Of a DNA stretch of 64,000 nt, positions 3,801 to 63,448 are shown in pieces; within the stretch, counting starts at the first letter, position 1, and each line of letters starts with the position of its first letter. The stretch covers positions 64,001 to 128,000 of IMG/VR virus record IMGVR_UViG_3300045988_176357. One strand, given 5' to 3'. A program made the translations under genes and the position numbers. Source of the stretch: a virus. Below the pieces are notes generated by a model. That model did not search any database. It was not told the DNA's origin and was given only the letters and a program-made list of their open reading frames with translations.

Positions 3801-5889
3801 CCGCGCTCCCTCGCTGCACAAGCTCAGTCTCATGGGCTTCAATGTGAGGCTGACAAGCGGCAAAGCTATCAAGATCAACCCCTCAATTGTTGTCCCGTAC
3901 GGAGCTGACTTTGACGGAGACTCATGTAAGTCGTTGATAATCATATGGTTACAACAAAAATAGGGCTCTCAGGTAGCAAAAAAGATATATAGAGGCAGTT
4001 AGAATTGGCACTTGACAAATGCGAAATCTGGTGTATATTACCTTCATAATGACAAGGAGCCGCAGCTCCAGAACCAACAATAGAAAGAAGGTAATACAAT
4101 GATTTCCAAAAATGAAAAAGTCTCAGTGATGCCGTATCTTATGGAACTCTCTGAAGTTCCTGTCATCAAAGGATCGGAAGTTGCCAAGTCGCCTACTGTC
4201 ACCGAATGGGATGTTGAGGAAGGCACTTTGGTGAACACCATAGACCCTGCTACAGGTGAGATTGTGTTTGCTCCCATGACAAAGGTATCCAGGCACACAA
4301 ACCTGAAAATGTTCGACGTGAAGTTCGGTATCAGCGGAGCCTATGAGCACATGTCCACAGTGTCTGAGGATCACAGCTTGATCACATATAACAGCACATC
4401 TATGGAACTGGAAAAGACCAGACCTGAAGAAGCCCTCGGCGCATGTGTTCCGATGACCAGATTCAACTGGTGCAACAAGGTTAACGATGAGCAGGGATGT
4501 GCAACTCATATCAACTTCCCGTCTGGTAACTACTCACTGTCCTACGATATGGGTGTCTTCTTTGGCCTCATGGTCGGTGACGGTTGGGTAGCCAGCACAA
4601 GTGCCAACACAAAGGTGGCCCATATCGCTTGCTGCGAAGAGTCCCTGCAGAACTACATATTGGAACTGACAAAGAGCGCGTCTATGCCGTTCACCAAACA
4701 GGCGGCACTATTCAGCTATGCAGCGGATGAACAGAGATTCAGCCAGCGAGACAAGCAGAGATTCACTATCTACATGGATAACGAAGATAAGGCGTTCCTT
4801 GAGAAGCTCATAGGTCATGGTGCCGAGAACAAACATATCCCCTATAAGAGCTTCATGGGAAGCATAGCACACATGATTGGCGTCCTTATGGGTCTGCTTG
4901 CTACAGATGGCGCGGTATCACATACGCCTGGAAGCGGAAACAGAAAGTCAGCTAAGAAAGCTATCATTTACCACACTGTAAGTCCTACACTGAGAGATGG
5001 AGTGCAGGATTTGGCATGCAGGCTTGGTATAAAGACAAGTGTCACGACATACACTGGCACATCTTCTGGAAACACAGCATATGCAATTGTGTTCTCACTT
5101 GAGGACTTTGCTAGACTGTACGATAAGAATCCGACAAGATGTGTGATACCTGTCAGCTATAAGCAGGAAGCTCTTATGCGTATCGTTAACGATGTGCATG
5201 AGAACAATAAAGCGTCGTGCAAGACCACCGTCACTTCTTATGATATAGTGCCGTTCCCTCGCGGACTGTTCTGCGAGTTCAGCTGGGCAAAGATTGTCGA
5301 CATCTCAAGAGACAGTGTCATAGCTGCACGTACCAAAGGCTTCATAAAGAGAAGCGTCGCAAAGCGTATTGCAGATGCTCTTGAGCGTCGCGACTGGTCT
5401 ATCTACAAAGATCCTGCATACCTCAAGAAAGCTGACCAGACGCATCGCACTCCCGCCCAGGCCAAGGCACTTGTGGACAAGTGGATCGCCATGGTACGCA
5501 ACGACGACATCGGCTGGGAAGTCGTGACAGACGTGACTCCGTCCACATGCACTGAGGGATGGGACTGCACAGTGCCTGGACCGTACACCTTCTCGCTCAG
5601 CACAGGAACTATTGTGCAGGACACCGTGAACCTGCACGTGCCTGTTTCACAGGCCGGTATCCGCGACGTGCGCTAGAAGATGATGCCCGAGCACAATCTG
5701 ATCTCAGCGAGAAAGCGCAAGATATTATACGCACCGTAGAAAGCTTATACGCAGGGACTCTATGTAGCCACAAGAATGGGTGAGGCCAAGGACGTGAAGA
5801 CCTTCAACACGCTGCAGGAAGCCAAAGACGCCTACAGAAAAGGCCTCATCGACGTGGATACACCGATACTGATCAAGGAGAAGCGATGA
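1..5889 (+). CDS. rpoB-rpoC: RNA polymerase beta (C-terminal two-thirds, 5'-partial) fused in frame to beta' N-terminal half; TAG read as sense; ends at TGA 5887-5889
   Basis: Frame 1 has no TAA/TGA from nt 1 to 5886 but about 60 in-frame TAGs. Translation matches bacterial RpoB: SKYGTQAVPLQ-Q-R-Q-APFVRA (QRQA motif, both Q encoded by TAG), MSYHGATYEDA (MPWNGYNFEDS), KPLQVGDKM...SGFQGSKGTVAQV (GDKMAGRHGNKGV), LLFDPLGIISRTNPSQLMQAGLG, AYYMPLKHLAQSKMSARG, RPIDGGLFGQDIFGP. It continues without a stop into beta': IPVLPPKFRPI, NRAPSLHKLS, PYGADFDGD, and after the insertion LHVPVSQAGIRDVR...GLYVATRM...AYRKGLIDVDTPILIKEKR. Confidence 0.85.
1681..2139 (+). mobile_element. Mini-intein (153 aa, no endonuclease domain) in RpoB between GDKM and SGFQGSKG
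   Basis: Starts CYDEQTQVLTADGWKRF (Hint block A); block B DLMVTPNHRNLV; block F/G GYVYCATVQKYHTLYVRRNGKAVWSGN followed by +1 Ser. Flanking exteins reconstitute the RpoB motif GDKM|SGFQGSKG. Confidence 0.8.
3922..5622 (+). mobile_element. In-frame intein-like insertion with double LAGLIDADG homing-endonuclease motifs in beta' at the NADFDGD catalytic loop; exact splice junctions uncertain
   Basis: Same frame as flanking rpoC when the three TAGs at 3961, 4000 and 4081 are read through. Hint block B-like TVSEDHSLIT. LAGLIDADG-like motifs GLMVGDGWVAS and MGLLATDGAVS. Extein resumes TVNLHVPVSQ, matching QMAVHVPLS after DGD. Junction residues (S or C at the start, D or N at the end) are non-canonical. 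Confidence 0.55.
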
Positions 5890-8272: not shown

Positions 8273-8617
8273 ATGCCCATTCATCAGAACGAAGACGGTA
8301 CCTGGCAGTGGGGCAAGTCAGGTAAGAAATACAAGAACAAGCAGGACGCAATAAAACAGATGCAGGCTATCTTCGCTTCCGGTTACAGAGAACCTGGGCA
8401 ACGCAAGAAAGCCGGGCTTACCTACATGTCTGCGTACCTGATTAAAAGAGCTGGTGGCGGTTCCTTCCAGGACTACATGAACTCCAATATTCCTGTGGAA
8501 AATGTGGAGCAGAGTCCGCAAAACAATGTGAAACAGGAACCTGAGAAACCTGCACAACAGCCGCCGACCCAGCAGCTTAACAGGCTTACGGGAATCTCTT
8601 TCTAGGAAATCAAATAA
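8273..8617 (+). CDS. Small hypothetical protein (MPIHQNEDGTWQWGKSGKKYKNKQDAIKQMQAIFASGY...)
   Basis: ATG immediately after ligase TAA; one TAG read-through at 8606 extends it to TAA 8615-8617. Confidence 0.5.
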
Positions 8618-8630
8618 GGACCTTATTAAT

Positions 8631-8969
8631 ATGACTTACATCGAAGCCTACAATATGTATAAGCAGGCTGCTCAGGTGAATGCTCCTGCTGCACATCCTT
8701 CTGTAACACCATCCGTTGCCACGAAACCTGCATTTGGTCAGTCGTATGTTAACGGCGGTTCAAAAATGCCTGACCTGCCGGGCACACGTACAGCAGTCAA
8801 AGGTGATACACCGTATCTGTACTGGACGCAGCTCGGCGGGAATAAACATATGCCGTGGCAAAAATGGCTGGGTCAGTTTCTGAAGGATAATCAGCTGAAA
8901 GCGGACGCCAAAGGCAGAGTTCTCCTGAAGCCAGGTCAGAACTATATGCTTGGCCCTGGAATTGAATAA
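8631..8969 (+). CDS. Hypothetical protein (112 aa)
   Basis: Standard ORF without TAG, TAA stop. Confidence 0.45.
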   Translation: MTYIEAYNMYKQAAQVNAPAAHPSVTPSVATKPAFGQSYVNGGSKMPDLPGTRTAVKGDTPYLYWTQLGGNKHMPWQKWLGQFLKDNQLKADAKGRVLLKPGQNYMLGPGIE

Positions 8970-18098: not shown

Positions 18099-20030
18099 AT
18101 GATACAGAAAAGAATCGTCCCTTAGGCTTCCGATTTCGGAGGATAGGAACCTGTACAGATACTTAAAGTCAGTTCCAAAGGGTTGGATAAGTCTGCATCC
18201 ATGCAGAAACGTGCAGCAGCTTTCGACGACATCATAGCAGATCTGAAGCCGATGCCCAAGAAAGCGTACCTGCACGTTATCACTACTGGAGCGATGTAGC
18301 ACTTCGGTATCAACAGGAACTGCTTCGTAGCAGGTACTATGGTTGTCACCTGGAATGGCACGAAAGCAATCTAGCACATTCGTGTGGGTGATCTTGTGCA
18401 GAGCGGCAGCGGTTAGATGCGTAGGGTTAACGACACATCTGCCAGGTGGTACAAAGGTCAGCTTGTAAAACTGACAGCAAAGAACGGATAGATCGTTGTC
18501 ACCATGACATAGGATCATCCGGTACTTGTTCTCGATGCCAGCTAGAAGTGGGGCGACTTTGTTTCTGCCAAGGATATCAAGCCTGGAGCTAAGTTGCTGG
18601 TACCTGACGACAAAGTAACATAGACCGCACTGAAATACAATATAACTGTAGACAAGGTGTAGTTCACTTATACAGAGTCAACTGTCGTCTATGACCTGAA
18701 GATCGAAGTCGAACGTACCTTCTGCGTTCCTTTTGTCGTGCACAACTGCGACGGCTGGAATTAGGATGCTTTTGTGTACAGACCTCCGATGCCTAAAAAT
18801 GCATCCTGCAAGTAGATTCAGCTCGATGGCGGACTCAGGAAGTACCATTCGACATACCTGGACAAGGCAGCTGTATATCAGGAGCACCAGACTGACAAGT
18901 AGAAGTCAGGATAGGTGAAAGCAGCTGTGTACAATGATAAGATGCACAGAGGCTAGTTGCTCATTGAAGTGGACACTGACAAGTGGGCATAGCGGCTGAA
19001 CAAGAAGGCGAACGGCCAGGACATATTCCTTTCGGTTGGAGCTTCGCTGAGAACCGATTATTGCACCGCCTGCGGGAATGCAGCGCACACGCTCGACTAG
19101 CACTGTTAGCACATCAAGAAACATGCAGGAATGGTGCTGTCAGACGGTACCAAGATCGGCATGATAAACGATGCTCCCAAGTTCTATGACATCTCAGGAG
19201 TGAACGTACCTGCAGACCAGATGGCATTCGTGCTGCGCAAGGTAGCATCAGGCGACAGTGCAGCCAAGGCCATTGAAGCTGCGAGGTTCCAGGCAACAAG
19301 ACCTCCTATGTCATTGTCAAAGGCTGCAAGACTTCTCGGTAAACTCGCGTAGCTGTAGAAATGCATTCAGTGTGAAGCACAGGACGATCCGATCTTTGCT
19401 GACTCTCCGGAAGCTGTGGAAGATTTTCTAAAAGCGGTATAGAATTACGACGCCGACTAGATCATCGATCAGTGCAACCGCAAGGCAATCCTTCTGTCAC
19501 CGAAAATGCTCTTTAAGATCCTCGGCAAGGAATCTGATAATCAGTAGCTGTTCAATACCTTTGCCTAGAGCTGCCCTTGCAGTGGTCAGCACCTCATGTA
19601 GGATATGCAGCAGGACTAGGAATTCAAGCCTATGCTCAGCGACGGCAGTTTCGATTCTGTGCTTCCTGTAGATCTCACTTTATAGGATGTTCTTAAACAG
19701 TTCATACCTTAGTTTGGTGTCAGCAGGCCTGCTCTGAACGGCAAAGCTATACGAATATAGATAACATCCGCCTAGCCTTAGAAAGATATGCAGCAGTTCA
19801 AAGACAAACTGCAGGACAGCATGCAGGACTCAGAATCGAGTTAGGACGATGATTCCGGTGATCGACAGAATGAGGATTCAGACAAAGAGGAGGATATGTA
19901 GAAGAAGGCGTCTCTCGTTGGAGACCAGTTCAGAAGAACATATGCCAGATACGTTCTGAGTTTTGCTTAGCGTAACAGTTAGGACACCTGCATGTTAGCC
20001 ATGCAGAAGCTCGCCAGATATAAGTAACGT
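18099..20030 (+). CDS. Hypothetical protein carrying a mini-intein; 3' end approximate
   Basis: Frame 0 checked 18099-19352. Contains HFGINRN|CFVAGTMVVTWNGTKAIQHIRVGDLV...TMTQDHPVLV...VVYDLKIEVERTFCVPFVVHN|CDGWN. Confidence 0.5.
18321..18746 (+). mobile_element. Mini-intein (142 aa) in hypothetical protein
   Basis: Hint block A CFVAGTMVVTWNGTKAIQHIRVGDLV; block B TMTQDHPVLVLD; block F/G TVVYDLKIEVERTFCVPFVVHN followed by +1 Cys. Confidence 0.7.
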
Positions 20031-20212
20031 CACTCTCTATGTGAGATAGATAATCCCAACAAAAAGGTAATATACCCATGAGTATGCTTAACAAGAAAGC
20101 CGCTTTTCTCCACGATCTGCTTGTTCAGTCCGGAGCGCTGCACAAAGTTGCAGGCGGCGAATAGATTACAGAGAAGAAGCTCGATGCTCCGCAGCCCACT
20201 ATCGGCGACAAG

Positions 20213-21333
20213 ATGCAGAATGAAACCGAAGAGGCTACGAATGGCAACTATGCTTCCGATCCCAGTGTGAACGCCGAGGTCAAAGGCACTGTCGAAATGG
20301 TAGAGAACAAGATCGAAGGCGACGATGACAAGAAGGCTGAAAAAGACCTTGCAGAGACCGGTACTGATGTGAAAGACGTATGTCCTGCAGGTATGCCTAC
20401 AGGAACTCCTGCTCAGGTTGCAAAGTCTGCAGCTCTCAAGCAGAAGCTCACGGCCTGCATCAATGCCCAGATCGAAAAAGAAGCCGCTATGAAGAAAGCA
20501 GCTGAAGAAGCTGAGCTTGCCAAACAGGCTGCAGCTAAGCAGGCTGAGAGCAATGAAGTGATGACAGCTACCGAAGTTCTTAACAAGGTTGCATCTTTCA
20601 CTGAGGACAAAACAGCTGAAGAACTTGCAGCGCTTACTGACGACATCGAAGTCAGCTTCAAGAAACTCGCTGCTACCAATCCGCTGTTCAATGTTGCCTG
20701 CGAACAGGCTCTGATTCGCAAGATGGCAGCTGAGGTTGAAGCTCTTTCAGCATCTGAAGGCATTCCTCCGGAAGAAGCGGCTGCGGCGCTCGATGCTGCT
20801 GTCGCTGAAGATCCTGAAGCGATGAGTGAACTTACTAACGAGGCTGAAGGTGAGGCTCTGTCTGATCTTGCAGCTGCGGAACAGGACTCTGCTGCTCTTA
20901 TGGACGGACTCGACCAGACCGCTGCACAGCTCTCTGAAGCTCTTGGTGAACCCGTTACAAGTGACGATATTCTCGCGGCTGTCGATGAAGTCACTGCTCA
21001 GGCCGAACAGCTTGGAGTTCCTCCGGAAGCTCTCGTTCAGGCTGCTGCAGCTGAGATGGCTCAGGGAGCTTAGATCTCTCCTGAAGATGCAGCTGCTGCT
21101 GAACAGCTTGTCAGTGATGCTGCTGCTCAGGGTGTTTCTCCCGAAGAGCTTGTCGAAGGCATTGCTCAGGCTGAAGCTGGTGCTGCCCCTGTCGAAGGTG
21201 CGCCTGCGGAGGCTCCTGCAGCTGAACCTGCACCCACTGAAGAGTAGCTCGCAAAAGAAGCTTGCCTCAGAAAGCTCGCATCTACGAAGCGCGGCGCCAA
21301 TCTCATGAAGATTCTTACTGCCAGCGGCAAGTA
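20213..21333 (+). CDS. Ala/Glu-rich acidic coiled-coil protein, putative scaffolding or head decoration protein
   Basis: 286-aa track ORF extended through 2 TAGs to TAA 21331-21333. Composition AELAKQAAAKQAES...AAEVEALSASEGIPPEEAAAALDAAVAEDPEA. Sits upstream of the capsid candidate. Confidence 0.45.
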
Positions 21334-21345
21334 AGGAGCGCACAA

Positions 21346-21750
21346 TGTCACAGGACTTCCAGAAGATCGCTGAAGAAGCGATTAAACAGTGCGCAGAATA
21401 TGAAGCTCGCATTAACCAGCTCCAGGAACAGATTGCTCTCACCAAGAAGGCAAATCTGGCCGATCCTGAGCTGGTTAAGAAGTCCGTGGAAGCTCTCACT
21501 AAAACAGGAGGTATCACGGCATAGCAGGCAGACGAGACAGCTCAGTTGCTTGCCCACGACCCAAATGCCTCCTTAAGAGCTATTCAGGCTCTGTGCGACC
21601 GCTACACTGACGCAGCTCCCATTGTGAAAAAAGAATCCGATATATAGGGCGGCAGGCTTGTTGATACATTCAATAAGCAGGCATCGGCGGCTCCTGTTGA
21701 AGACGCATACGCTGCAGTTGCCCGTGTCCTCGGACTAAAGATGAATAAAT
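21346..21750 (+). CDS. Small hypothetical protein (about 135 aa)
   Basis: Frame 1 ATG after scaffold stop, 2 TAGs; end approximate. Confidence 0.35.
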
Positions 21751-21763
21751 AAAGGAAACTATT

Positions 21764-22348
21764 ATGGCTATTACAAGGTCTGTTAAACAGCAGTACGAGT
21801 ACTACGTTGCTGTTAAGAGCGGCGTTCTTGATGAGACCAACTGTCTCATGCACACGGCTGTGCTGAATGAGAATGCCGATAAGGTTGTTCGCGGCTCTGT
21901 TATCTCTCTGAATGCTGCGGGCGAATTCGTGCTTGGGCTTACTGAAGGTTCCGGCAATCTGTATCCGATGCCCTGCTTCGCGAAGAAGAATGCGTTTGAT
22001 CCGGATGTCATGACCGGCGCTGTCGGCAGTGCTACCGGCGAAGTTATCGCCAGTTCTACTGTCGGTAAGAAGATGTCCGCCTATGTTGCTACGGGTGCAT
22101 TTGAAATCGAATCCTCTGAGTTCGATAAGGATGCTACGTATGCGATCAATGCTGCACTTGTCTGTGCTGATGGCGACAAGCTTGGAAAGGTCACTCCCGG
22201 TGGTGCGAACGCTGTGTACGGAGCGAAGACTGTCGTCGGTATCGTCAGTGCGCTTCCGTTCCGCTCCAAAGCCAGCCTGAACGTGAACGGCACTGCTGTT
22301 AACCGCATCTGCTTCTGGTCGGTCTTCTTCCCGCCGAAGCGTGGTTAA
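21764..22348 (+). CDS. Hypothetical structural protein (194 aa, TAG-free), possible head decoration
   Basis: Clean ORF with TAA stop inside the capsid module. Confidence 0.4.
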   Translation: MAITRSVKQQYEYYVAVKSGVLDETNCLMHTAVLNENADKVVRGSVISLNAAGEFVLGLTEGSGNLYPMPCFAKKNAFDPDVMTGAVGSATGEVIASSTVGKKMSAYVATGAFEIESSEFDKDATYAINAALVCADGDKLGKVTPGGANAVYGAKTVVGIVSALPFRSKASLNVNGTAVNRICFWSVFFPPKRG

Positions 22349-22404
22349 TCCGCTGTAAGATAAACCAGGGGAGCGTGTCTCCCCGATAACTATAGGAACG
22401 CAAT

Positions 22405-23418
22405 ATGTACACTTCCGATCAGATTGCTGCCATCAATCAGGAGTTTAAAGACAAGCTCCTCAGCGATGACTCCGCTATGGTGAAACAGGCGGGACTCGCA
22501 GGCACCACATATTTCCGTACGCGCATTCGCTAGAATGCCGTATACCGCAAGCTTCTTCCTCCGGTCTCCGTTACGGCTGACAACTTCGATGTGAATGAAG
22601 CCTCCGACCTTCCCAGCATGATTGTCGAGCTCGACATCAACTCCGAAGGTGCAATGCAGGTTCCGTTTGAAACGGCTACCACCGGCGCAACCTTCAACGG
22701 ACGCAAGGCGAGATGTGAATTCGGGCGCATCATGACGCCGAAGTACGAGATCGACAAAATCCGTCTTACCGGATACAAGATGCCGATCCTTGACATCCTG
22801 TACGACCTCATGCTCAAAGACATCATGGATGTCGAAGACGAAGCGTGGGCGGCTGTCAACCAGGAAATCGTCGGCAATGCTGATAACCAGACCGATCAGA
22901 TCGCTGAATTCGGTCTCCGCCGCGCTATCCGCCAGACCTGGGATCGTGAAGGCGTTGCCGGTCTCGGTGCTGCGGCTGCCGGATTGCTCCGCACGAAGGG
23001 CAAATTGAAACCGTCCAAAGGACTCATGAACGAACTTCTGTACATCAGAATGGCTGAGTGGGATCGAAATACCGTTGGCGGCGATATGGCTCAGGACATG
23101 CTGTTCGATGGTGTCACGACCGGCAAGCTGAACAAGCTCGATGTCCTCGTCACCTCCAAGGATACTGTCTGCTCCGAATACGATCTGTGGGTGTTCACTG
23201 ATCCGCAGTTCTATGGTGCGAACTACACGTACCAGGATGTCAGCATGGTTACGGACGAAAAGGATGGAATCTTCCTGAACTTCTTCGCCTATGAGACCAT
23301 CGGCGGTATCGTTGTGAACAGAGCCGGTGTCTGCAAGGTCACGTACGATGCGAAGAACATCAACGAGTGCACCTTCTGGACTGATCCGGTTGATGCTTCC
23401 GACGCCATCGGTGGCTGA
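22405..23418 (+). CDS. Putative major capsid protein (337 aa)
   Basis: Size and position (after the scaffold-like gene, followed by a strong terminator); only 1 in-frame TAG. No motif-level proof. Confidence 0.35.
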
Positions 23419-23442
23419 TTGAAATCAGGTTGCTGATTATAA

Positions 23443-23472
23443 AAGCCCTCCGTAACAGGAGGGCTTTTTTTA
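23443..23472 (+). terminator. Rho-independent terminator
   Basis: AAAAGCCCTCC-GTAACA-GGAGGGCTTTTTTT downstream of the capsid candidate. Confidence 0.7.
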
Positions 23473-23520
23473 TGTCCTTAATGTGGTAAACTGTAAGAAA
23501 CCAACAAGAAAGGAAGTATT

Positions 23521-24309
23521 ATGTCAGTAACTATTCAGACCGTCATCACCAACAAGAGTCGCGGAGTTCGTTCCCTTATTGTTTCCAGATCAAAGACGTA
23601 CAGTCTCAGAGCAGGAGAGACAGTAGTTCTCGATTACGATATCTGGTCGTACCTCACACCTACAGTAAAACGGAAACTTGAACTGGATGTGCAGATGGGA
23701 AGACTCGAGATCACAACAAGGCTGTTCACAGACAATGCCAACATCTCTGTCGACCCTGATGGAACATATAAGATTGCCAACGGCGGACTTGAGGTCGCCA
23801 AGCCCAAAGAGCAGGTGAAAGAAAATAAGCTCCCGGCAGCCAAGGCTGACAAGGCCACCACCAACGGAAAACTGTTTGACAACAGTGGTACGGTTATGGC
23901 TGACAAGAGCTCGTCTGTCATGCAGAAAGCCATCGGAGCCAAGCGTGTTGAGGCTGGTAATACAGATCAGACAGAACAGCCTGCACAGGACAAAACAGGA
24001 TTCACTAAAACCGACATGAGCTCCTCGGGTCTTATGCATACTATGAACAATCTCGAACCTGCACATTCATCCAGCGTGTTCAAAGCCACCTCGACAGATA
24101 CAACCAAAGCAGAGGAAGAAGCCAAAACAGAAACAGAGAAAGAACTGTCACGTCCTGAATACATCGACGAACTGTATGCAGCTAAAGATTACACAGCCAT
24201 CGCAGGAGCGCTGACAGAGTGGTATCCTGGAACAACGTTCACAAAGGCTTCTATCAAGAAATGCAACAGCTATGCTGAACTCAAAGAAAAGTACCCTGTG
24301 CTTGCGTAA
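23521..24309 (+). CDS. Hypothetical protein (262 aa, TAG-free)
   Basis: Clean ORF, TAA stop. Confidence 0.45.
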   Translation: MSVTIQTVITNKSRGVRSLIVSRSKTYSLRAGETVVLDYDIWSYLTPTVKRKLELDVQMGRLEITTRLFTDNANISVDPDGTYKIANGGLEVAKPKEQVKENKLPAAKADKATTNGKLFDNSGTVMADKSSSVMQKAIGAKRVEAGNTDQTEQPAQDKTGFTKTDMSSSGLMHTMNNLEPAHSSSVFKATSTDTTKAEEEAKTETEKELSRPEYIDELYAAKDYTAIAGALTEWYPGTTFTKASIKKCNSYAELKEKYPVLA

Positions 24310-25284: not shown

Positions 25285-25680
25285 ATGCGGTACACAAGAA
25301 CCTAGCTGGCTAACCACTATAACGTCACAAAAGGAAAGCTTCGGCGTATATTGAAAGCGCTGCAGCTTCAGCCTGTGTAGGTTGAACGTACTGCTACAGG
25401 GCGTCCTGTGTTCTATTATGCCGACAGCACTGTGTTGTAGATCGACAAATACCTGGATGCTCTTATGCAGAAGAAACAGCAGTAGCTTGTAAAGTGCTGT
25501 ATATGTAAGCAGAGTGTCAGTAAGAGCAGTATGATCGGCGGCAGATGCCAGATGTGTTATGTGAAGAAGTGCTGTGCACCTATTATGTACGGAAAGTAGT
25601 TCTGGAACAGGAAGGTAAACGCACAGACTGTCAGCACAGCTATTCGTTATCTGCAGTCAATGTTACCTGGCTCCACGTGA
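25285..25680 (+). CDS. Putative HTH DNA-binding protein with C-terminal Cys-rich zinc ribbon
   Basis: LANHYNVTKGKLRRILKALQLQPVQVERTATGRPVFYYADSTV then CCICKQ...CQMCYVKKCC; frame 1 checked, TGA stop. Confidence 0.4.
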
Positions 25681-26596: not shown

Positions 26597-26713
26597 TGGC
26601 GCTCCCACTGAGATTCGAACTCAAGATCTGGCGGATTTCATTGATAATCGAGGACTTACAACAATCCTGATATCTCTGGACTATATCATCTTCTCCGTTT
26701 CCAGAGAAGGAGC
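26597..26713 (-). ncRNA. Aberrant 117-nt tRNA-like element: canonical T-arm (TTGAG-TTCGAAT-CTCAG), acceptor 3' strand, discriminator and encoded CCA, but non-canonical 5' half
   Basis: Reverse complement ends ...CAGATCTTGAGTTCGAATCTCAGTGGGAGCGCCA; candidate 5' acceptor strand GCTCCTT lies 117 nt upstream; no standard D/anticodon arms could be fitted and no CTA anticodon is present. Confidence 0.35.
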
Positions 26714-26931
26714 GCTTCGGACTTTCGTCCTACTCCCTTGCGGGATAGTCTCTGAACCCTTTCCGGGCTCCATAGCTTTCGCCTTAGGAGATCCCTTGAT
26801 CGGCTGCTGATTGCCTTCGGCGTTACCCGTTAAGGTGTCCCAGCAATTCACTTTCTTGTTCGACACACCTCGCGGTGTGAAGCTCCAAACAGAGTCCGCT
26901 GTTCTGCCATTAAACTATGGGAGCATAATAT

Positions 26932-27007
26932 TGGTTGCGGGGACAGGATTCGAACCTGCATATCCAAGCTTATGAGGCTTGTCGGCAACCGTTGCCACCA
27001 CCCCGCC
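26932..27007 (-). tRNA. tRNA-Met (anticodon CAU), 76 nt with encoded CCA
   Basis: Reverse complement GGCGGGGTGGTGGCAACGGTTGCCGACAAGCCTCATAAGCTTGGATATGCAGGTTCGAATCCTGTCCCCGCAACCA: anticodon stem CAAGC/GCTTG, loop CTCATAA, T-loop TTCGAAT, acceptor 6 bp plus a G1:A72 mismatch. Confidence 0.7.
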
Positions 27008-30394: not shown

Positions 30395-32398
30395 ATGATT
30401 ACAGACTATAAGGATCCTAGTGTAACCCTTAATCAGGTTTACAAGGCATCCACTGTCGGTACTACACCGGCGTTGGGAGCCTGTATTATCGGTCCGAATT
30501 ACTTTGTACGTACATATTCCGACCTGAAGGAGTCTCTCAGACTCGACAGTTAGGACAATTACGCAAAGTAGGACTATTCGGTCGTGTATACTCCTGCAGA
30601 CGGACTTTCCTTCAGATACTTCCCTGGAAGAGAGACGAAAGACGGCAGTGTAGACGAAGATTCCGTGAAGGTGCTTGTCAAAAACGCCCAGCTCTAGTAC
30701 CTTCCTGAGTTCGGAGCTTCTGACAGCATCACTACGGATGCAGTGTATGGTACAGATACGATCAGTATCAAACAGGAAGGCATCTACTATGTCTTCAACG
30801 GTGCAGGAAGCGACACATCTGTTCCGGCTGTTCAGGCTGGAGACGCAGTGAAGATCACTGTCGCCGGGGATACTGTTGACTGCTACGTTCAGGGTTTCCT
30901 CAGAGACGACGGAGGCAAGTATACCAAGTGCGTTCTTACCAAGAGTCTTCCACAGGGAGACATCACTGCGGTCAGTTTCAGGCGCGTTGTCGATTGCTAT
31001 GTCAACCAGGCATATGTGACTGTCCGCACCGTCGATGGCGTGCAGCAGGTTTCCATCCAGCCTAATGCAGAGGCGACCGTAGATCTCGGTATCGGTCAGA
31101 CAGAGTATCCTATTCTGACAGGTGCTTTCTATGTCGAATACAGGTGTCGGTCCAATCGCTATGTCGGTACTTATGGCATGGTCGCTGATATCGATGATGT
31201 CCAGGGAATGCTTGGCAAAGTCTGCGCGGACAATCCGCTAGGTGTTGCTGTTGCGTGCGCTGTGACTGAATCCGATGGCGCATTCGTGTACTTCACAGCC
31301 ACTGCATAGGAAGACCTCAACAACAGCGCTGTTAAGGTGTACAACGATGCGGCGGATCTCATTGCCGACACTGACGGCATTTACGGCATTGTTCCGTGTA
31401 CTGCCGATGCAGAAGTTACGAAAAACCTGTTCAACTTCGTGACCAACCAGTCCGGTGAGTAGGTTCCGTATCCCAAGTATCTGTATGGCAGCTGCGACAT
31501 TCCGACTGAAGAGAAGCTGAATGGTACGTATCTCACTGTGACAGATTCTTCTGCTTCCGGCAACACAACTACGGTAACGTTCAGCAGCTCTCCGCTGCTT
31601 GCTATGTCTACGGTTGTTAAAGGCGATGTGCTTCGCATAGGCGATAAGAGCTACACCATCACTGGTTCCAACCACAAGGACAAGGTGTATGTTGCAGGCG
31701 ATCAGACAGCAAATATTGCTTCAGGCGCCGTTGCAGACATTTATCACACGCTGACTGACAACGCTCAGATTGTGGCAAGTATCATTGCGGCTAAACCGGT
31801 TGCCGACAGACGAGCATCCATTGTGTTCGCGGACGGCCCGATGTACAACGGATAGCCGGTTCACAATTACTGTGTTGCAGCTGCTCTTGCTGGAATGCGT
31901 TCCGGAACTTATCCGCATGCTCCCCTCAGCAATGTTACCGTCACCGCTGTCACGACTTCATAGGAGCATGGGTTTACAGCCAGTCAGCTCAAGCAGCTCG
32001 GTGCTTATGGTTTCTGGCGTGTCGGACAGAATGAAGAGGGTGTTGTGATCAGTCGCAGACAGCTCACATCCGCTGCAGCCGATGATGTCAATCTCGACGA
32101 GCAGTCTATAGTCTGCAACATCGACAGCATCTGCATTTCGCTTAAGACCACCGGAAGAGATCTTGTTGGAAACTCGAATATCTCTCCGATGCTCCTGACA
32201 TTGCTTAAATCTACGCTGCTTACGAAACTTGAAGGTTTCCAGCAGTATGTTACGGAGCTCATAGGTCCTCAGCTGCTCAGCGCATCTCTGGATTCGATCG
32301 AACAGGACGAGATACATAAGGATAGAATCTATGCGGACATGTCTGGATAGCCTCCGAAGCCGTTCAACAGATTCCATATGAGATTCTATATGAATTGA
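30395..32398 (+). CDS. Large structural protein, putative tail sheath
   Basis: Frame 2 continuous through track ORFs 30743/31538/32045 joined by TAGs. N-terminus KASTVGTTPALGACIIGPNYFVRTYSDL resembles the T4 gp18 N-terminal GTAALAGKFQWGPAF signature. AAGGA 8 nt upstream of the ATG. TGA stop 32396-32398. Confidence 0.35.
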
Positions 32399-41080: not shown

Positions 41081-41913
41081 ATGCCGGGTATATTTGAACA
41101 AATTAAAGGTCTGAATACTTCTTCTCAGAATATTGCGCCTAAACCTGTAAAGCAGCCGCAAGAAGATATCGTACAGACCATAGCCGATTGGCAGAAGAAG
41201 AGCACGCCTGAAACCACCAAACAGATATTGGACTTCATCAGGCCGACTATCGACAGTGCGCTTCATACCTATACACCTGGACAATAGAACACATTCAGAA
41301 TAAAAGCTACATCCTATGCCTTGCAGAGTCTGCGTAACTACGATGTGACAAAGAAAGTGTCTCCAAAGACCTTCGTGTTTTCAAACCTTCAAAGACTCAA
41401 CAGACTCAGAAGGTAGCGTTAGAATATCATTCATATCCCTTAGAATCAGGTCTATATGAAACAGATGCTGGACAATAAAACAGCTTAGCTGTAGAGTGAC
41501 CTGGGAAGACCGCCTACTGATTAGTAGCTGAGCTAGGCTCTGTATATCTCCAAGCGCAAACTGGATAAGCTGCGTTAGCAGTCCTCTGTTACCATAAGTT
41601 AGACAATGTCTCAAGATCCGTAGGGACACTAGATGCTTGGAGCGTCTGATGTCACGGACAGGGATTACTATAATTATGTCTACTCATCTGTATCTCCTGT
41701 AGATAAAAAGATAATGTAGTGGACATCCGGGTACAAAACAAAGCCGCTGTCCAATAATCAGATAGCTGAGAAACTGCATATATCACCTGGGGCTGTATCA
41801 CAGAGAAAGAACAGGATACAGCAGCTCATGGGTTAGGTCAGAGGTCTCGTATGAGAAAACTTATACAGGAAGGCGGAGAAAAGCCAACCGGCTGCTCATT
41901 GCAGCAGCACGAT
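41081..41913 (+). CDS. Sigma-70 family sigma factor, TAG-rich (late?) copy
   Basis: Frame 2 checked. Region 4.2-like HTH LSNNQIAEKLHISPGAVSQRKNRI preceded by VTDRDYYNYVYSSVSPVDKKIM; region-2-like N-terminal segment; 23 TAGs; TAA stop. Confidence 0.6.
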
Positions 41914-58450: not shown

Positions 58451-59118
58451 TTTACAGCATACAATGGACAACGTTGTATCGCGGTATGTTCTTACTTATG
58501 AAGCCTGCGGCGAGCGCAAAACTCTGCTGTCTATCGACGCAGACTTCAGCGCACCGACGCAGCTTCAGAACTAAGAACAGATCAGATCTGTAAATAAAGC
58601 TGAACTCGAGTCCGTTACGGATTCACAAATGTGTATTACTCAATGCGTGATACACAACAATCCTGGTGCTGCATGGAGCACCTCCGAACAGCACCAGGAT
58701 TCAGAGCTTATACCCCAACACAGCTAAAGCTTTCTCAAGCTAAGCTATAAACTTGGCATCAGGAACAACAGAATTCGCAAACCCTCCAAGCCCGTCCCAC
58801 TGTCCTGCAAGACGCTGTTTAACAGCCTATCTTATCCGCACACCAAGATCCTACAGAACCAGTTTGATCTATTGGCTCTGCACATGGAAGCCTTTCTGCT
58901 CCCATCTGACCCAAATCGGGTACCACCTTGCAAACCGCTTGCATGCGGTAGGCAGAGGATATATAGTATCCCTTCTTCCCTATTTGCCGCGCAACACAAC
59001 GTTGCCGTTTATTGACTAGAGTCTTCTGACCTAGTCAAAAGTGAACTTAGCGTGACTCATAGACTAGTACTGCGTTGCTTCTTTTTTTAGCCTATAGTCA
59101 TTGTTACTGTCAAGTTTA

Positions 59119-60936
59119 ATAACTTTCATATACATCCTCCTATGGGTCTATTACAACAGGGTGACTGGAGACGGCCTGCACGAACTGACTGAACTAGGAT
59201 CTTGGACTGAAGTTCTGATACTAAGCGGCCAGCACAGAAGTGTCGAACTTCTAGCCCAGCACAGGAAATATTCCGAACTTATGCCATAAGGCTGAGCAGG
59301 CAAAGTTGACGGCATGTGCAAAGTCATCAGGCACACCTGGTTTCTTGCCTATGAAGACAACTGTCCTGTTGCCTATATACGCTCTTGGATCCTACTTAAG
59401 CGCAAGAAAGTCATAGGCAAGCTAAGTCTTATCCTATACATTGAACTTCATTATACGTACAGACGTATCTTTCAGCGCCTGCACAATAAGAGCAAGACTT
59501 CTGGACTTGTCTATTGTATAGTTATAATAGTCAGCCTGCTGCTGAGCTTTGTCGTAGCTTATGATGTCGCCTTTCTTAGGTCCGGTATATGTGAACGGAA
59601 CAGGATACGTGCTTGTGAGCAGCAATCCTCGCTGCTTCATGATCTACATGCGCACAAAACCCGCACCACCGTTATCGTGTGCAAATATATCAGGATGCAG
59701 GATATCTATCCATTGCATCAGCTACTAGGCCTGCTATGTCGGCGTCGTTCCTTTAGGGTATCTCTTGCCGAACAATATATCTATGCGGTCTGTATCCGTT
59801 CGCAACCCTGCTACACACGCAGTTGTGAACGACTATGATACAGCGCCCCCTCCGTCCCAGTCTACACCTATGACTATGCATCTGTACATGTGCCTGATAC
59901 CGAGTATATCCTGTACTGAAGCGATGTTGTAGTCATGTTGGGCTGCAACAAGATCACGCAATGTCAGAGGATTGACTGACTAGTCATACGGCCAGCCGAA
60001 AACTTCATTGTACACACGCAGCTTGGAATAACTGTCGACTTTAGCCAGAAGGTCGTACCATTTTCTAGGTTCATTGGTAGCCTAGTCGATCGTAAGATGC
60101 AGCGGATGTATCGGCTGCCCTATATGGTAGCCTGGGAAAGTGAACTGTCTCTAAGGTACGGCATGTACGAAGCCTCCGTTATGTGGAAACACAGTGCGCC
60201 CACACCTGGAACACACAAGGCCGTTCTTTCCGAGCATTCCAAGAAGATCGTGCTATGGATTGGGTATATTGAAATGGTTGCAGTGTGTGCATCTTATTAT
60301 CCACTATGCCTGCGATGACTTATCCCACAGGATACCGCAAGTAGTATCTGTCGTAGTCGGAGTACCCGCATACATGGAATACCCGTGCCGCAGGTTGGCC
60401 GACATAACCTCACGTATGACAGGCACGAAACTGAAATCCACGTCGGCAAGCTCGTCTATGACTATCTGTGAGCATCCGGACAGGCCTCGCAGAGCATCTG
60501 CGTTGGCGTAAGCGGTGCCCAGATACATGAACGAGCCGACATTGAACTGCTTCAGCAGAGTTTTGCTGAGCTATACTTTTTTGATAAGAGATCCGCATAT
60601 CGGACTGGACTCAAGCAGAGGTTTCAGAATGGTAGTGTGATATCGTGTCCTCTGTTCATCTCTTGGTTCGATATGAAGTATATCATAAAACGGTATCAGA
60701 CTGGAACGCAGTACAGACGACTAGGCTATCTGATAGGTCTTACCGACCTGTCGTCCAGTCATCCATACCTGCTATCTAGGATATATAGTGTTGAACATGG
60801 GTGCGAACTGATAGTGCAGATCCAATGTCAGAGGTTTCCCCTTAAGAGAGAAGATACTCAACAGTGGAATGAACGTCCTCAGTTTGTCCTAGGCGATAGC
60901 ATTCAAACACGATTTAACAGCATCAATTAAAGTCAT
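59119..60936 (-). CDS. terL: Large terminase subunit (605 aa), TAG-recoded on the minus strand
   Basis: Reverse-strand frame free of TAA/TGA with 16 CTA (antisense TAG). Walker A MTGRQVGKTY (T4 gp17-type RQxGKT); Walker B QIVIDELADV; nuclease motif CIVIGVDWDGGGA; stop TAA (rc of 59116-59118). Confidence 0.75.
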
Positions 60937-60972: not shown

Positions 60973-61335
60973 ATGAAAAGCAAACGGACACCGGAACCAG
61001 ACGCAGAACTCGTAACAGCAATCAAGTGTGCGCCAGACAATGGGGCTTGCGTTACCAAAGTCATCAGCGTACACAAGGCTGCAGCCAATCTGAGCTCGAG
61101 AGCTGCCGCACGTAAAGCTGTACTGGATATAGTTAAAAGCCTGAAACTGAACCATGCCAAAGTCCAGCTGGATTCGGCTGCTTATTTCGATGAAGATATT
61201 TTCAGAGTCCGAATCTGGAAAGAGAAAGCAACAGCAGATGCATGGGATAAGACTGTAATTTACTGGCTCGAGACGATGCCTCTTATAAAGCCGGTCAGGA
61301 ACAAGCTTGCCAAACTGGGATTCAACCTGGACTGA
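60973..61335 (+). CDS. Hypothetical early protein (120 aa)
   Basis: TAG-free ORF, TGA stop; divergent from terminase. Confidence 0.5.
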   Translation: MKSKRTPEPDAELVTAIKCAPDNGACVTKVISVHKAAANLSSRAAARKAVLDIVKSLKLNHAKVQLDSAAYFDEDIFRVRIWKEKATADAWDKTVIYWLETMPLIKPVRNKLAKLGFNLD

Positions 61336-61366
61336 GCTTTACTGTAACAAATGAAAGGAATAAAAG

Positions 61367-61627
61367 ATGAAAAGAAACAATTATGTATTCGCAGTACTGA
61401 GCTCAGGTATATTCCACACGTATATCGAAGCTGCATTTGATAGTGAGCTGTTGGCAATTGCGTACATGCAGAAACGTCTTGATGCTGTGCGGGCAAAGCA
61501 CAAACGAGGATATGGTGGCAGATGGCGTACTGAACCTGACGGGTCGAGAACTGTCATGCTCAGGATGTGTAATCAGCCACACATCCAGCTGAATCTGCAG
61601 AAACTCACCATACAAACCCACCTGTAA
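61367..61627 (+). CDS. Small protein, paralog of 61664..61960
   Basis: Shares AYMQKRLDAVRAKHKRGYGGRWRT with AYMQHRIDMYKRKHRRGWGGKWNT in the next gene. Confidence 0.5.
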   Translation: MKRNNYVFAVLSSGIFHTYIEAAFDSELLAIAYMQKRLDAVRAKHKRGYGGRWRTEPDGSRTVMLRMCNQPHIQLNLQKLTIQTHL

Positions 61628-61663
61628 CCAACACATATACGAAATAACTGAAAGGAAAGACCC

Positions 61664-61960
61664 ATGGCAAAAAATAAGAAATGCGCATACATTGTACTGA
61701 GAGATGACAGATTTTATGACTGCCTGTCAGGAGTCGAAGCTTTGTTCGACACAGCAGAAGCAGCTAAAGCCTACATGCAGCATCGTATCGACATGTACAA
61801 AAGGAAACACAGGCGAGGATGGGGCGGCAAATGGAACACTAAGGCGCCGATGAATGAAGAATGCGAAGCCGAAATACGTGCAGGTGACGGCTATTGGTAC
61901 ACACTGTATGTAGAGAAATTTATCATACACACAAAAGAAGATATAAAGGAGCTTGAATGA
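61664..61960 (+). CDS. Small protein, paralog of 61367..61627
   Basis: See the paralog entry; TGA stop. Confidence 0.5.
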   Translation: MAKNKKCAYIVLRDDRFYDCLSGVEALFDTAEAAKAYMQHRIDMYKRKHRRGWGGKWNTKAPMNEECEAEIRAGDGYWYTLYVEKFIIHTKEDIKELE

Positions 61961-62364
61961 TCGTTATCAGTCGTCTTTATGTCTCCGGACTTCCTTTAGA
62001 TAAACTCGAGCAACTGGCAGATGAAATCAGCCACAAAGACTTCACAGACGGCTGTGTCTTCGCATGCTCTGTCCACAAGGATGCTGCTAGGATGTACATA
62101 GACACCTTTGAAGGCGTCGCTACCGACCAGATGGACGATGATCTCAACGAGATTGGCAGACTCGCGCTGAATTATGGTTGCCGCATTGCAGGCAAAATCT
62201 TCCAATTTGGTGAATTTGCAGTATGGTCCGGAAACTTCAATGATGTGAATGAGATCGAATGGGTTGACATGACTCTGTTCATGGAACTGCCCACACACGA
62301 GCTCAGAAAACTTGCAACATATGTAGGTGCCGACAATGTCGTACAAGCTCAACACAAATGTTAA
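61957..62364 (+). CDS. Hypothetical early protein (135 aa)
   Basis: ATGA overlap with upstream stop; TAA stop. Confidence 0.45.
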   Translation: MIVISRLYVSGLPLDKLEQLADEISHKDFTDGCVFACSVHKDAARMYIDTFEGVATDQMDDDLNEIGRLALNYGCRIAGKIFQFGEFAVWSGNFNDVNEIEWVDMTLFMELPTHELRKLATYVGADNVVQAQHKC

Positions 62365-63136
62365 GCCGCTTACTGCTGCACAGGAAAAAGAGGCATTCGC
62401 AGACTTCCATTCCCAAGATACAAAGAAAAGCGAGGCTGCTGCCGACCTGCTGCTTTCCGCTAACTCAAAATTGATCTTTAAATTGGCGCAGGAATTCAAG
62501 CACCATCCCATTCCTTTCGACGATCTCATAGCCGAAGGTTGTGTAGGTCTTATGGTAGCGGCTGGGAAGTTCGACATCAACAGAGGAACACGCTTCATTA
62601 CATATGCAGCATGGTGGATAAAACAGCGGATGCGCAAAGCTGTGGAAACACAGAGCCGCACAGTGCGAGTACCTGCAAAGACACATGTGACCAAGTCCAG
62701 ACTCCTCAGGATGCAAGACCAGCTGAGAGACGAACTAGGTTACCAGCCGGACATCTATCAGCTGTCCGAGTACACGGGCATGCCTGAATCCAAGATCAAG
62801 ACGCTGCTGAACAGCCTTGGGCACGGTGTGTCTGTAGATGCGGAATCAGAAGACACTGAAATGTCCAACCTGGAGAAGGCACGTGTAGCCATTGCCGATG
62901 ATCTTGGTGACCTGCTGGACGACTCCGAGCTGCTGGACGAGATGCGCAAAGCTTTCAAGCGCCTTCCTAAACGTGACCAATTCGTGCTTGGTATCAGGTA
63001 TGGACTTGATGGCGGCGGCGTATCCACACTGGAGGAAGTCGCGCAGGAAGTCGGCAGGTGCAGAGAACGATGCAGACAACTTCAGGAAGAAGCCTTAAGG
63101 AAGCTTCGCAGAGAAATCAGAAAACGAACAAGTTGA
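62336..63136 (+). CDS. Sigma-70 family sigma factor (TAG-free early copy); start ATG 62336 or GTG 62327
   Basis: Region 2 DLIAEGCVGLMVAAGKFDINRGTRFITYAAWWIKQRMRKAV; region 3 RTVRVPAKTHV; region 4 LPKRDQFVLGIRYGLDGGGVSTLEEVAQEVGRCRERCRQLQEEALRKLR. Confidence 0.85.
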   Translation: MSYKLNTNVKPLTAAQEKEAFADFHSQDTKKSEAAADLLLSANSKLIFKLAQEFKHHPIPFDDLIAEGCVGLMVAAGKFDINRGTRFITYAAWWIKQRMRKAVETQSRTVRVPAKTHVTKSRLLRMQDQLRDELGYQPDIYQLSEYTGMPESKIKTLLNSLGHGVSVDAESEDTEMSNLEKARVAIADDLGDLLDDSELLDEMRKAFKRLPKRDQFVLGIRYGLDGGGVSTLEEVAQEVGRCRERCRQLQEEALRKLRREIRKRTS

Positions 63137-63142
63137 GGCACT

Positions 63143-63448
63143 ATGAAAAACGTATACACAGTGTGTGTCAGCAAACCGGGCAAAAGTCTGATGCGTTCTG
63201 TCACATGTTCTACAGCGAGCCTTGCCAGCTATTACATGCTGTACATGGTCGAGCAATACAATAAGGAACACAAAGACGTGGCGATCAATGCTATGGAAGG
63301 TCCTGACGGCAATATCGACGAAGTGCGCATTGCGGATAAGGATGGCAAGCAGATAGCCTGGATCTTCATTGTTGAAGTTCCTGTACACGCAAAGAAATCG
63401 GATACAGCCAAACTCGGTATGGCTCCCATATTGAAGTGGCTGGAATAA
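63143..63448 (+). CDS. Hypothetical early protein (101 aa)
   Basis: TAG-free, TAA stop. Confidence 0.45.
   Translation: MKNVYTVCVSKPGKSLMRSVTCSTASLASYYMLYMVEQYNKEHKDVAINAMEGPDGNIDEVRIADKDGKQIAWIFIVEVPVHAKKSDTAKLGMAPILKWLE

Follow-up and report, generated by a model that had tools for sequence, protein, structure and literature searches.

The 64-kb stretch of viral DNA analyzed here (the window; IMG/VR record IMGVR_UViG_3300045988_176357, positions 64,001 to 128,000) is crowded with in-frame TAG codons, and the question that it raises is why two groups of genes, a capsid cassette at 20078-24309 and a module that begins at 60973, contain few of them or none. A preliminary description had offered two ideas for these islands together, namely, that early genes have to be readable in the host code and that highly expressed capsid genes avoid an inefficiently decoded codon. 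Both ideas find support, but each fits a different island rather than the two alike. The islands are probably of two kinds with different causes, early readability for the module at 60973 and codon selection under high expression for the capsid cassette.

The longest open reading frame (ORF) has 531 amino acids (aa) under the standard code and 1,963 aa when TAG is sense, and with TAA and TGA as the sole stops, the genes tile the + strand at 1-57326, the - strand at 58701-60861, and the + strand again from 60973. TAG was taken as sense because long ORFs tile the genome only under that reading. These 64 kb come from a tailed human-gut phage of about 192 kb. Positions 53143-64000 are 100% identical to locus L007 (ENA ERZ28595212 scaffold_51, 192,159 bp, human gut), and the exact sequence of the 101-aa TAG-free protein encoded at 63143..63448 (+) was found on the L007 contig and in other human-gut assemblies. 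With the sequence that L007 adds beyond the right end, about 73 kb of the 192 kb was profiled in all. A megablast search of 25 kb against 50,697 phage records (INPHARED) found no DNA-level match, and a scan of the capsid protein against IMG/VR found no relative. The capsid protein has 115 metagenomic homologs, and 21-kb loci around six of them (L001 to L006) were used for comparison. L001/L002, L003, and L004, with capsid identities of 85, 72, and 70%, are syntenic with the part of the window between positions 13 and 33 kb and contain in-frame TAGs, whereas L005 and L006 (47 and 40%), which are also syntenic, have zero in-frame TAGs, and in L006 TAG serves as a stop. Over one set of flank genes, the TAG share of glutamate codons is 0 to 0.5 in L004, 0.3 to 0.6 in L001, and 0.44 to 0.79 in L003 and the window, and the clade thus spans the standard code (L005 and L006), light recoding (a further locus, L013), and near-complete replacement of the Glu codons.

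In total, 705 in-frame TAGs occur in 19,575 codons of the window (1 per 28), and the late genes outside the islands carry 690 in 16,837 codons (1 per 24), within the range of 1 per 20 to 30 codons given by the preliminary description. In most late genes, TAG makes up 65 to 95% of the glutamate-type codons (TAG, GAA, and GAG), as in the gene at 27929-28837, with 18 TAGs, 1 GAA, and 0 GAG. The capsid cassette has 6 TAGs in 1,346 codons, or 6 TAGs versus 111 GAA or GAG codons (GAR), which is 5% of its 117 glutamate codons, whereas the other late genes have 698 TAGs versus 335 GAR (Fisher's exact test, p = 5e-42). The module at 60973 has 0 TAGs versus 52 GAR (p = 5e-25 by the same test). Gene by gene, the TAG share of the Glu codons is 5, 17, 0, 5, and 0% in the five cassette genes in order and 0% in the genes from 60973. 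The cassette counts of 3 (2 if the first gene starts at 20213), 2, 0, 1, and 0 TAGs agree with those reported earlier (2, 2, 0, 1, and 0). A segmentation of all 1,202 glutamate-type codons of the window with a two-state hidden Markov model recovers both islands as GAR-regime segments, at 20171-24286 (5 TAGs in 115 glutamate-type codons) and 60994-63443 (0 in 52), and also returns segments at 4087-5554 (0 in 30), 8261-8964 (1 in 11), and 30707-32309 (4 in 23). The proposed clustering of TAG beyond chance is thus borne out by the per-gene counts over the window and L007 as well as by the segmentation. That the island genes simply offer few positions open to TAG, by chance or through their amino acid composition, might be entertained for two small island proteins with 9 and 12 glutamate-type codons. 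Over the cassette as a whole, 6 TAGs among 117 glutamate-type codons, against 68% elsewhere, and the retention of this pattern in relatives leave such an explanation a negligible probability and effectively exclude it.

The amino acid for which TAG stands was sought in nine sets of orthologs, aligned with TAG masked as X, in which four recoded genomes were compared with the two standard-code genomes (L005 and L006). TAG occupies glutamate positions. It stands opposite E in 186 of 533 ungapped comparisons with standard-code orthologs, a 4.0-fold enrichment (1.5-fold for Q), and in the columns where both standard-code orthologs agree, the residue opposite TAG is E in 70, D in 16, and Q in 7. E ranks first by BLOSUM62 sums in each of the four recoded genomes, and the residues opposite TAG (E, 0.31; D, 0.13; A, 0.09) have the profile of a control made of genuine Glu codons, unlike that of a Gln-codon control. 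In three flank genes, TAG, GAA, and GAG together make up 7.2 to 8.4% of codons in all six genomes, and GAA and GAG alone account for 7.3% in the standard-code genomes but 2.5% in the window, while Gln codons hold steady at 3.8 to 5.4% across the six genomes and CAA and CAG are not depleted. Pfam bit scores with TAG read as E versus Q are 32.0 versus 22.2 for Sigma70_r3, 44.3 versus 37.6 for Baseplate_J, and 44.1 versus 39.9 for Rpb1_5; E is favored in four of five families, clearly in three, and two families are described as neutral. Invariant residues flank the sole TAG of the capsid gene (codon 43) on both sides; 39 of 45 homologs have Glu in this column, and L003 has TAG there. Solved bacterial beta' chains, aligned with the RNA polymerase, were uninformative about what TAG encodes, since the TAGs of the phage gene fall at variable positions. 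The inserted residue, as read from the alignments, is very probably glutamate. Glutamine (code 15) had been assumed at first, through the ratio TAG/(TAG+CAA+CAG), and was dropped because the ortholog alignments show Glu and because it is GAA and GAG that are depleted. Since TAG stands at glutamate positions, the proper comparator is GAA/GAG, which TAG has displaced in the late genes, and the contrast between these genes and the islands is therefore nearly binary, beyond a difference in density. At the column of capsid codon 43, the public database gives Q for L003, in the table 15 translation of protein P0008 (L003 10001-11011), and database entries for the proteins of this clade probably carry a wrong residue wherever TAG occurs.

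The capsid cassette consists of five genes on the + strand. The first (20078..21334; 3 TAGs versus 54 GAR) encodes a 418-aa Ala/Glu-rich protein at the scaffold position, with 13.6% Glu, and ortholog lengths of 409, 398, and 431 aa favor the start at 20078 over that at 20213. It is followed by genes for a 135-aa protein without a family match (21345..21752; 2 versus 10) and for a 194-aa protein (21764..22348; 0 versus 9), the latter gene having no TAG in any of the four recoded genomes. The earlier labels, scaffold-like for the first protein and decoration-like for the 194-aa protein, are putative, and the single-sequence AlphaFold2 model of the latter was unusable, with a predicted local distance difference test (pLDDT) score of 30. 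The fourth gene (22405..23418; 1 versus 18) encodes the major capsid protein of 337 aa, which matches phrog_2522 (E = 1.9e-5). An AlphaFold2 model of its 85%-identical homolog P0001 (pLDDT, 75.6) has HK97 gp5 as its top Foldseek matches in the PDB (E = 3e-10; probability, 1.00; template modeling score, 0.50 to 0.63), and the modeled structure confirms the capsid candidate of the preliminary description as an HK97-fold capsid protein. Directly 3' of the capsid gene lies an intrinsic-terminator-like hairpin (23441..23468, +), an 11-bp stem followed by a T-run, which is the strongest between 19.5 and 33.5 kb; the tube candidate, too, is followed by one of the strongest hairpins of this kind in the region. 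The last island gene (23521..24309; 0 versus 20) encodes a 262-aa protein, is TAG-free also in L003 and L004, and is the fastest evolving of the cassette (50, 30, and 24% identity). Pfam and PHROGs gave no family for four of the five island genes, i.e., all but the capsid gene.

The departure of the cassette from the other late genes extends to many codon families. Within the respective family, ATA (Ile) accounts for 0.02 of codons in the cassette versus 0.50 in the other late genes, GTA (Val) for 0.06 versus 0.30, ACA (Thr) for 0.28 versus 0.47, CAA (Gln) for 0 versus 0.15, TTA plus TTG (Leu) for 0.04 versus 0.16, CGC (Arg) for 0.45 versus 0.15, and TAG (Glu) for 0.05 versus 0.69. AGA is also avoided, and a significant difference is seen in each of the Ile, Val, Leu, Arg, Thr, Ala, and Gln families (p = 1e-3 to 2e-12). 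The bias of island over flank is present in six of six genomes, including L005 and L006, and because these standard-code relatives show it too, it predates the recoding. The non-preferred codons were taken from the contrast between the island and the rest; across 46 late genes, their fraction correlates with that of TAG (rho = 0.66, p = 5e-7), and it still does so when the island genes are left out (rho = 0.54, p = 3e-4). The bias has the look of ordinary translational selection acting on the proteins made in the largest amounts, and TAG is probably avoided in the cassette as one more non-preferred codon, an estimate that applies jointly to the favored explanation of both islands. The idea that highly expressed capsid genes avoid an inefficiently decoded codon thus fits the cassette, where the bias is common to standard-code relatives and tracks the avoidance of TAG.

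The history of the cassette in the recoded relatives bears on another explanation, that it arrived recently from a standard-code relative and has had too little time to gain TAGs. Syntenic cassettes do occur in standard-code relatives (L005 and L006), and a mobile element with TAG-free sequence of this kind is present in the window. This third GAR-regime island is a 567-aa intein-like insertion (3922..5622, +) in the DFDGD loop of the RNA polymerase, with 3 TAGs versus 31 GAR where the remainder of the gene has 43 versus 24, and it is a mobile element in standard code within a recoded gene. The capsid island, however, is TAG-poor in four recoded lineages, with counts in gene order of 2, 4, 0, 0, and 2 in L001, 7, 5, 0, 1, and 0 in L003, and 0 throughout the five genes in L004, and the capsids have diverged to 70 to 85% identity in step with their flanks, while the island genes are merely 17 to 47% identical to those of L005 and L006. 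Island TAGs fall at the same columns in different lineages (capsid codon 43 in the window and L003; scaffold columns 346 and 419). The Glu codons of the island have also turned over extensively since divergence: between the window and L001, GAA and GAG have switched in 29 of 79 shared island columns with TAG still rare, and TAG and GAR have switched in 33 of 91 shared flank columns. Conserved TAG poverty, shared TAG columns, and codon turnover therefore exclude both a recent import, which is highly improbable and effectively out of the question, and too few opportunities for mutation, and they indicate selection against TAG in the cassette, as judged from these sequence comparisons.

A suppressor tRNA is encoded within the window near the capsid island, and neither this intron-split tRNA nor the glutamate meaning of TAG had figured in the preliminary description. 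The tRNA(CUA) lies on the - strand at 26597..26924, with a 5' exon at 26924-26891, a 252-nucleotide (nt) intron at 26890-26639, and a 3' exon at 26638-26597, and the intron falls between anticodon positions 35 and 36. ARAGORN missed the split tRNA(CUA) in the raw sequence and found only a tRNA(CAU); the spliced exons (76 nt) form a canonical tRNA, called tRNA(cta) by the same program. At the junctions, the 5' exon ends in CTCT, with a terminal U, the intron ends in AATG, with a terminal G, and the 3' exon begins with AAATCC. The intron scores 31 bits (E = 2.8e-5) against Rfam RF00028 (group I), whose gathering score is 50, and there is no match at that threshold. An uninterrupted tRNA(CTA) is present at the same place in L001, L002, and L003. 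The sole Escherichia coli matches of the L001 suppressor are to tRNA-Glu and are weak (71% identity, E = 2), and a similarity search with the suppressor of the window gave mixed Asn, Arg, Trp, and suppressor matches and assigned no isotype. Directly upstream of the suppressor lies a tRNA with the anticodon CAU, labeled Met (26932..27007, -), which from its sequence could be a tRNA-Ile2 that reads ATA; ATA is the main Ile codon of the late genes (50%). Both this tRNA(CAU) and its L001 counterpart (14662-14735, -) carry a G1xA72 mismatch. Downstream of the tRNAs, the region at 25631-26492 (-) holds a TAG-free Cys-rich Lar-like gene (a weak Pfam match of 17.6 bits) and a GIY-YIG homing-endonuclease gene with 6 TAGs.

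In one of the two main rivals of the favored explanation, the cassette is written for translation without phage tRNAs, whether because it is on before suppression or because it must work if suppression fails, while TAG, and perhaps ATA if the adjacent tRNA(CAU) reads it, gates the other late genes. The two codons that the tRNA pair (26597-27007) could serve are the ones that fall from 0.69 to 0.05 (TAG) and from 0.50 to 0.02 (ATA) in the cassette, the gene at 23521-24309 is TAG-free without a general codon bias, and the hairpins or terminators that bound the cassette would allow it to be a separate transcription unit. However, the standard-code relatives avoid ATA, GTA, and AGA in their capsid cassettes, so that the bias predates recoding; the early block, necessarily independent of phage tRNAs, uses ATA freely (0.36); the avoidance is graded, with 5 to 17% TAG in some island genes and 27% in a tail-sheath candidate; and the tRNA-Ile2 identity of the CAU tRNA is only putative. 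Overall, such an arrangement appears rather unlikely. The other main rival concerns decoding fidelity and supposes that TAG is read ambiguously, as a mixture of Glu and Gln or with partial termination, which would be tolerated in low-copy proteins but would poison a capsid lattice. In its favor, the suppressor tRNA bodies differ between close relatives, being Glu-like in L001 and of indeterminate isotype in the window. tRNA-Glu-derived amber suppressors can be charged with Gln in E. coli. A passage of Borges et al. (10.1101/2021.08.26.457843) likewise cites the glutaminylation of TAG suppressors. Ambiguous decoding does not predict a bias in other codon families or in standard-code relatives, though, no direct sign of ambiguity appears, and other multicopy structural genes (baseplate) are TAG-rich, which makes it quite improbable as the cause of the capsid island.

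The module at 60973 presents a different picture. It is the first 2.5 kb of a standard-code early or replication block, "early" being a designation from gene function. Four small TAG-free genes (60973-61335, 61364-61627, 61664-61960, and 61957-62364; all +), without family matches in Pfam or PHROGs, precede the gene for a sigma-70 family factor of 266 aa (62336..63136, +; 0 TAGs versus 22 GAR), which matches phrog_351 (E = 5.5e-54) and the Pfam families Sigma70_r2, r4, and r3 (55, 36, and 29 bits, all past the cut-offs), and the gene for the 101-aa protein mentioned above follows. The sigma start is the ATG at 62336, as in the public gene call; the ATG at 62321 has a TAG immediately after it. 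All genes at 60973..63448 stop with TAA or TGA, and with this start, the earlier account of the module as free of in-frame TAG, stopped by TAA or TGA, and including a sigma factor is correct. Past the right end of the window, L007 extends the block by at least 9.4 kb, with SbcD-like, SbcC-like, unknown, and SNF2-type helicase genes, none of which contains a TAG. On the other side of the junction at 60862-60972, the final recoded gene is that for the terminase large subunit (59116..60861, -; 20 TAGs versus 9 GAR; phrog_675, E = 3e-33; Pfam GpA_ATPase). The loci L010 and L012 have the same terminase-to-sigma boundary, with a TAG-rich - strand terminase gene and 10 kb of TAG-free sequence from the gene preceding sigma, and their sigma factor (representative, P0117) is 51% identical to that of the window; in the lightly recoded L013, the terminase gene has 1 TAG in 31 Glu-type codons, and the sequence is TAG-free from the same junction. 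Codon usage in the early block is ordinary, with values of 0.36 versus 0.50 in the late genes for ATA, 0.30 versus 0.30 for GTA, and 0.50 versus 0.47 for ACA. Because the block is TAG-free, otherwise ordinary in codon usage, and bounded in the same way in relatives, it is read as readable in the host code, and it is to this block, with its sigma factor, SbcD, SbcC, and helicases, that the idea proposed earlier for early genes applies. A standard-code early block is an architecture already known for recoded phages.

Several further features of this block were noted. The genes at 61364-61627 and 61664-61960 are paralogs with the common motif ...A.AYMQ.R.D....KH.RG.GG.W.T..... The closest cellular homologs of the sigma factor at 62336-63136 are the primary sigma factors RpoD/SigA of Verrucomicrobia (35 to 40% identity), a similarity that is a possible hint at the host. 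IS605-type TnpB (OrfB) genes occur at differing sites of the early block in L008 (11175-12287), L009 (16269-17035), L010 (15463-16548), and L012 (6934-8052), and at 12778-16372 of L007, a - strand gene (13804-14493) interrupts the SbcC-like gene.

The window also encodes a sigma-like protein among the tail genes, which the preliminary description had placed at 41081..41913 with 23 TAGs. That span is not a multiple of three and holds 18 TAG trinucleotides over all frames; the gene occupies 41081..41854 (+), ends with TGA, and has 15 in-frame TAGs versus 4 GAR. Its product matches phrog_351 (E = 8e-6) and scores 32.0 bits against Sigma70_r3 with TAG read as E, 22.2 with Q, and 15.2 with X (cut-off, 25.3); region 4 scores 16.9 bits, under its cut-off, and sigma region 2 was not detected by Pfam. 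The share of Glu codons written as TAG is 0 of 22 in the early sigma factor and 15 of 19 in the late sigma-like protein. A sigma-70 consensus promoter scan returned 15 sites versus 16.7 in shuffled sequence and hence no excess, and a search for shared 9-mers in 18 intergenic regions yielded ribosome-binding-site-like words only, so that no promoter motif could be tied to either sigma by the two approaches. A cascade from an early to a late sigma factor, as proposed earlier, would be compatible with these data and nothing stronger.

From the codon patterns, the TAGs at glutamate positions, the suppressor tRNA, and the conservation observed here, we infer the timing and levels of expression and the per-codon cost of TAG as follows. 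The early block would be read by the host's own, unmodified translation machinery at a stage when UAG is still a stop, the suppressor tRNA(CUA) not having been made and spliced yet, and it would supply the sigma factor and the replication and recombination functions. Once the suppressor tRNA had been transcribed and spliced, the TAG-laden late genes could be completed; those dependent on suppression would comprise the RNA polymerase subunits, the portal-region, tail, and baseplate genes, the terminase, and the sigma-like protein. The RNA polymerase gene is TAG-rich and would therefore give no product before suppression is active. The capsid cassette would contain the most heavily translated genes, from which selection for fast and complete translation would strip TAG, ATA, GTA, ACA, AGA, TTA/TTG, and CAA. 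Every TAG may risk termination or slow decoding, which would be tolerable in low-copy virion and tail proteins but not at hundreds to thousands of copies, and the cassette would thereby escape dependence on suppression.

Several points weigh against this scheme. The terms "early," "late," and "highly expressed" derive from gene function and codon bias alone, and a CUA tRNA charged with Gln is still compatible with the data, the insertion of Glu being deduced from the alignments. A cost of TAG leaves its 65 to 95% share in low-copy late genes unexplained and calls for some pressure for TAG or against GAR, and the existence of genes with 35 to 38 TAGs implies that suppression is very efficient, a point that weakens the case for such a cost. 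The correlation of TAG with non-preferred codons is partly circular for the island genes because the non-preferred set came from the island-versus-rest contrast, although it persists without them. The gene at 23521-24309 is TAG-free (0 of 20) yet without a strong general bias (0.24), and selection for efficiency therefore leaves part of the island unexplained. Finally, the sheath candidate is TAG-poor in the window and L001, but its L003 counterpart has 29 TAGs versus 16 GAR. A broader reading is possible, though we regard it as doubtful: a new phage code in which TAG means Glu, with the suppressor charged through the host Glu pathway, would use TAG density as a per-gene dial of translation, set to zero in genes needed before the switch, near zero in bulk capsid genes that bypass the phage tRNAs, and to 65 to 95% in low-copy late genes tied to an intron-gated tRNA.

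Among the remaining genes of the window, those of the virion region, assigned by homology, are rich in TAG, including the terminase, baseplate, RNA polymerase, and tail genes. The RNA polymerase is a multisubunit enzyme with fused beta and beta' parts (1-5889; C-terminal part, 11010-13319); it is TAG-rich, sits amid virion genes, and carries several intein-like insertions, one of them within the catalytic DFDGD loop. A ligase-like gene (6968-8272), also amid virion-region genes, codes for an N-terminal LigD 3'-phosphoesterase domain joined to a ligase-like C terminus, and two small TAG-poor genes without family matches (114 and 112 aa; 8273..8969, +; 1 TAG versus 9 GAR) follow it. The gene at 18099-20027, 5' of the scaffold-position gene, encodes a Hint/intein domain, and its L001 ortholog (4795-7647), of 950 aa, has a LAGLIDADG-type insertion. 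The sheath candidate is a late protein of 667 aa whose identity, suggested by its tail-sheath position (30395..32398, +; 8 TAGs versus 22 GAR), is putative; its codon bias is like that of the capsid cassette, and it had no match in PHROGs, in Pfam, or in a PDB sequence search. The tube candidate found nothing in PHROGs or Pfam. A baseplate J protein is encoded at 42611-44158.

TAG-recoded gut phages of code 15, in which TAG is read as Gln, include crAss-like, Lak, Jade, Sapphire, and phAss phages (10.1101/2021.08.26.457843; PMC7886860; PMC9523058; PMC10607447), and in the published model for them, the code switch times the translation of late genes. The phage studied here is like them in its in-frame TAGs in structural and late genes, its phage tRNA(CUA), its contiguous standard-code replication or early block, and its standard-code relatives. 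It is unlike them in that TAG stands at Glu positions and replaces 65 to 95% of the late GAA/GAG codons and in that an island of standard codons covers the capsid cassette inside the late block. In the parts of Borges et al. (10.1101/2021.08.26.457843) that were available, TAG to Gln and TGA to Trp are the sole reassignments reported for phages that do not share the code of their host, and a full-text literature search yielded no phage in which TAG is reported to mean Glu. What is most novel at this locus, and apparently a new phage genetic code, is the reading of TAG as Glu together with the nearly complete displacement of GAA/GAG. The passages searched of the Borges preprint and of Peters et al. 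(PMC9523058) hold no discussion of TAG avoidance in capsid genes, the word "capsid" occurring in them 0 times and once, respectively, and as far as could be found, a capsid island has not been explicitly described. In phAss-1, TerL and the tape measure protein carry TAG and the capsid protein is absent from the recoded list, and in a survey of 715 code 15 genomes, the number with an identified capsid protein was 407 under table 11 and 475 under table 15; these observations hint that capsid avoidance may be general.

Current pipelines translate TAG-sense phages with table 15, and if TAG means Glu, thousands of residues are mistranslated in these proteins. Stop reassignment in phages would then be wider than the reported Gln and Trp, which bears on which host synthetases can be hijacked. 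The recoding series of the clade is rare material on how a codon reassignment spreads and which genes resist it. The two islands separate constraints that are usually confounded, the need to be readable before the switch and expression too high for a suppressed codon, and this separation leads to testable predictions on the cost of suppression.

Among methods for such genomes, Mgcod (10.1101/2022.06.29.495998), in the parts of its description that were available, treats block-wise multiple genetic codes in phage genomes. The genome studied here is likewise split by the use of a reassigned stop, and the junction at 60862-60972 is such a boundary. As far as those parts describe it, the Mgcod framework separates codes rather than amino acid meanings and would not resolve a 4-kb low-TAG island in a recoded block. 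Group I introns occur in the anticodon loops of cyanobacterial tRNAs. Theta ribozymes adjoin suppressor tRNAs in recoded phages (PMC10879173), and intron-containing tRNAs are found in alternatively coded jumbo phages (PMC13037316). The suppressor tRNA(CUA) of the window similarly needs RNA processing, here through a 252-nt group I-like intron at 35/36, and is uninterrupted in L001 and L003. In the nuclear code of peritrich ciliates (NCBI table 30), both TAA and TAG mean Glu. The ciliate and the phage thus both read TAG as glutamate, if the assignment made here is right; the ciliate code is eukaryotic, genome-wide, and extends to TAA, whereas the phage keeps TAA as a stop and uses the reassignment in part of its genome only. 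It is established that the codon usage of highly expressed genes, phage structural genes among them, is subject to translational selection, and a 2008 study by Lucks et al. in PLoS Comput Biol reportedly describes codon selection in phage structural genes. As in such systems, the capsid genes of this phage avoid rare codons more than their neighbors do, and this is kept across relatives; here, the disfavored set includes a reassigned stop, and the bias therefore makes the proteins that are probably the most abundant readable in the standard code.

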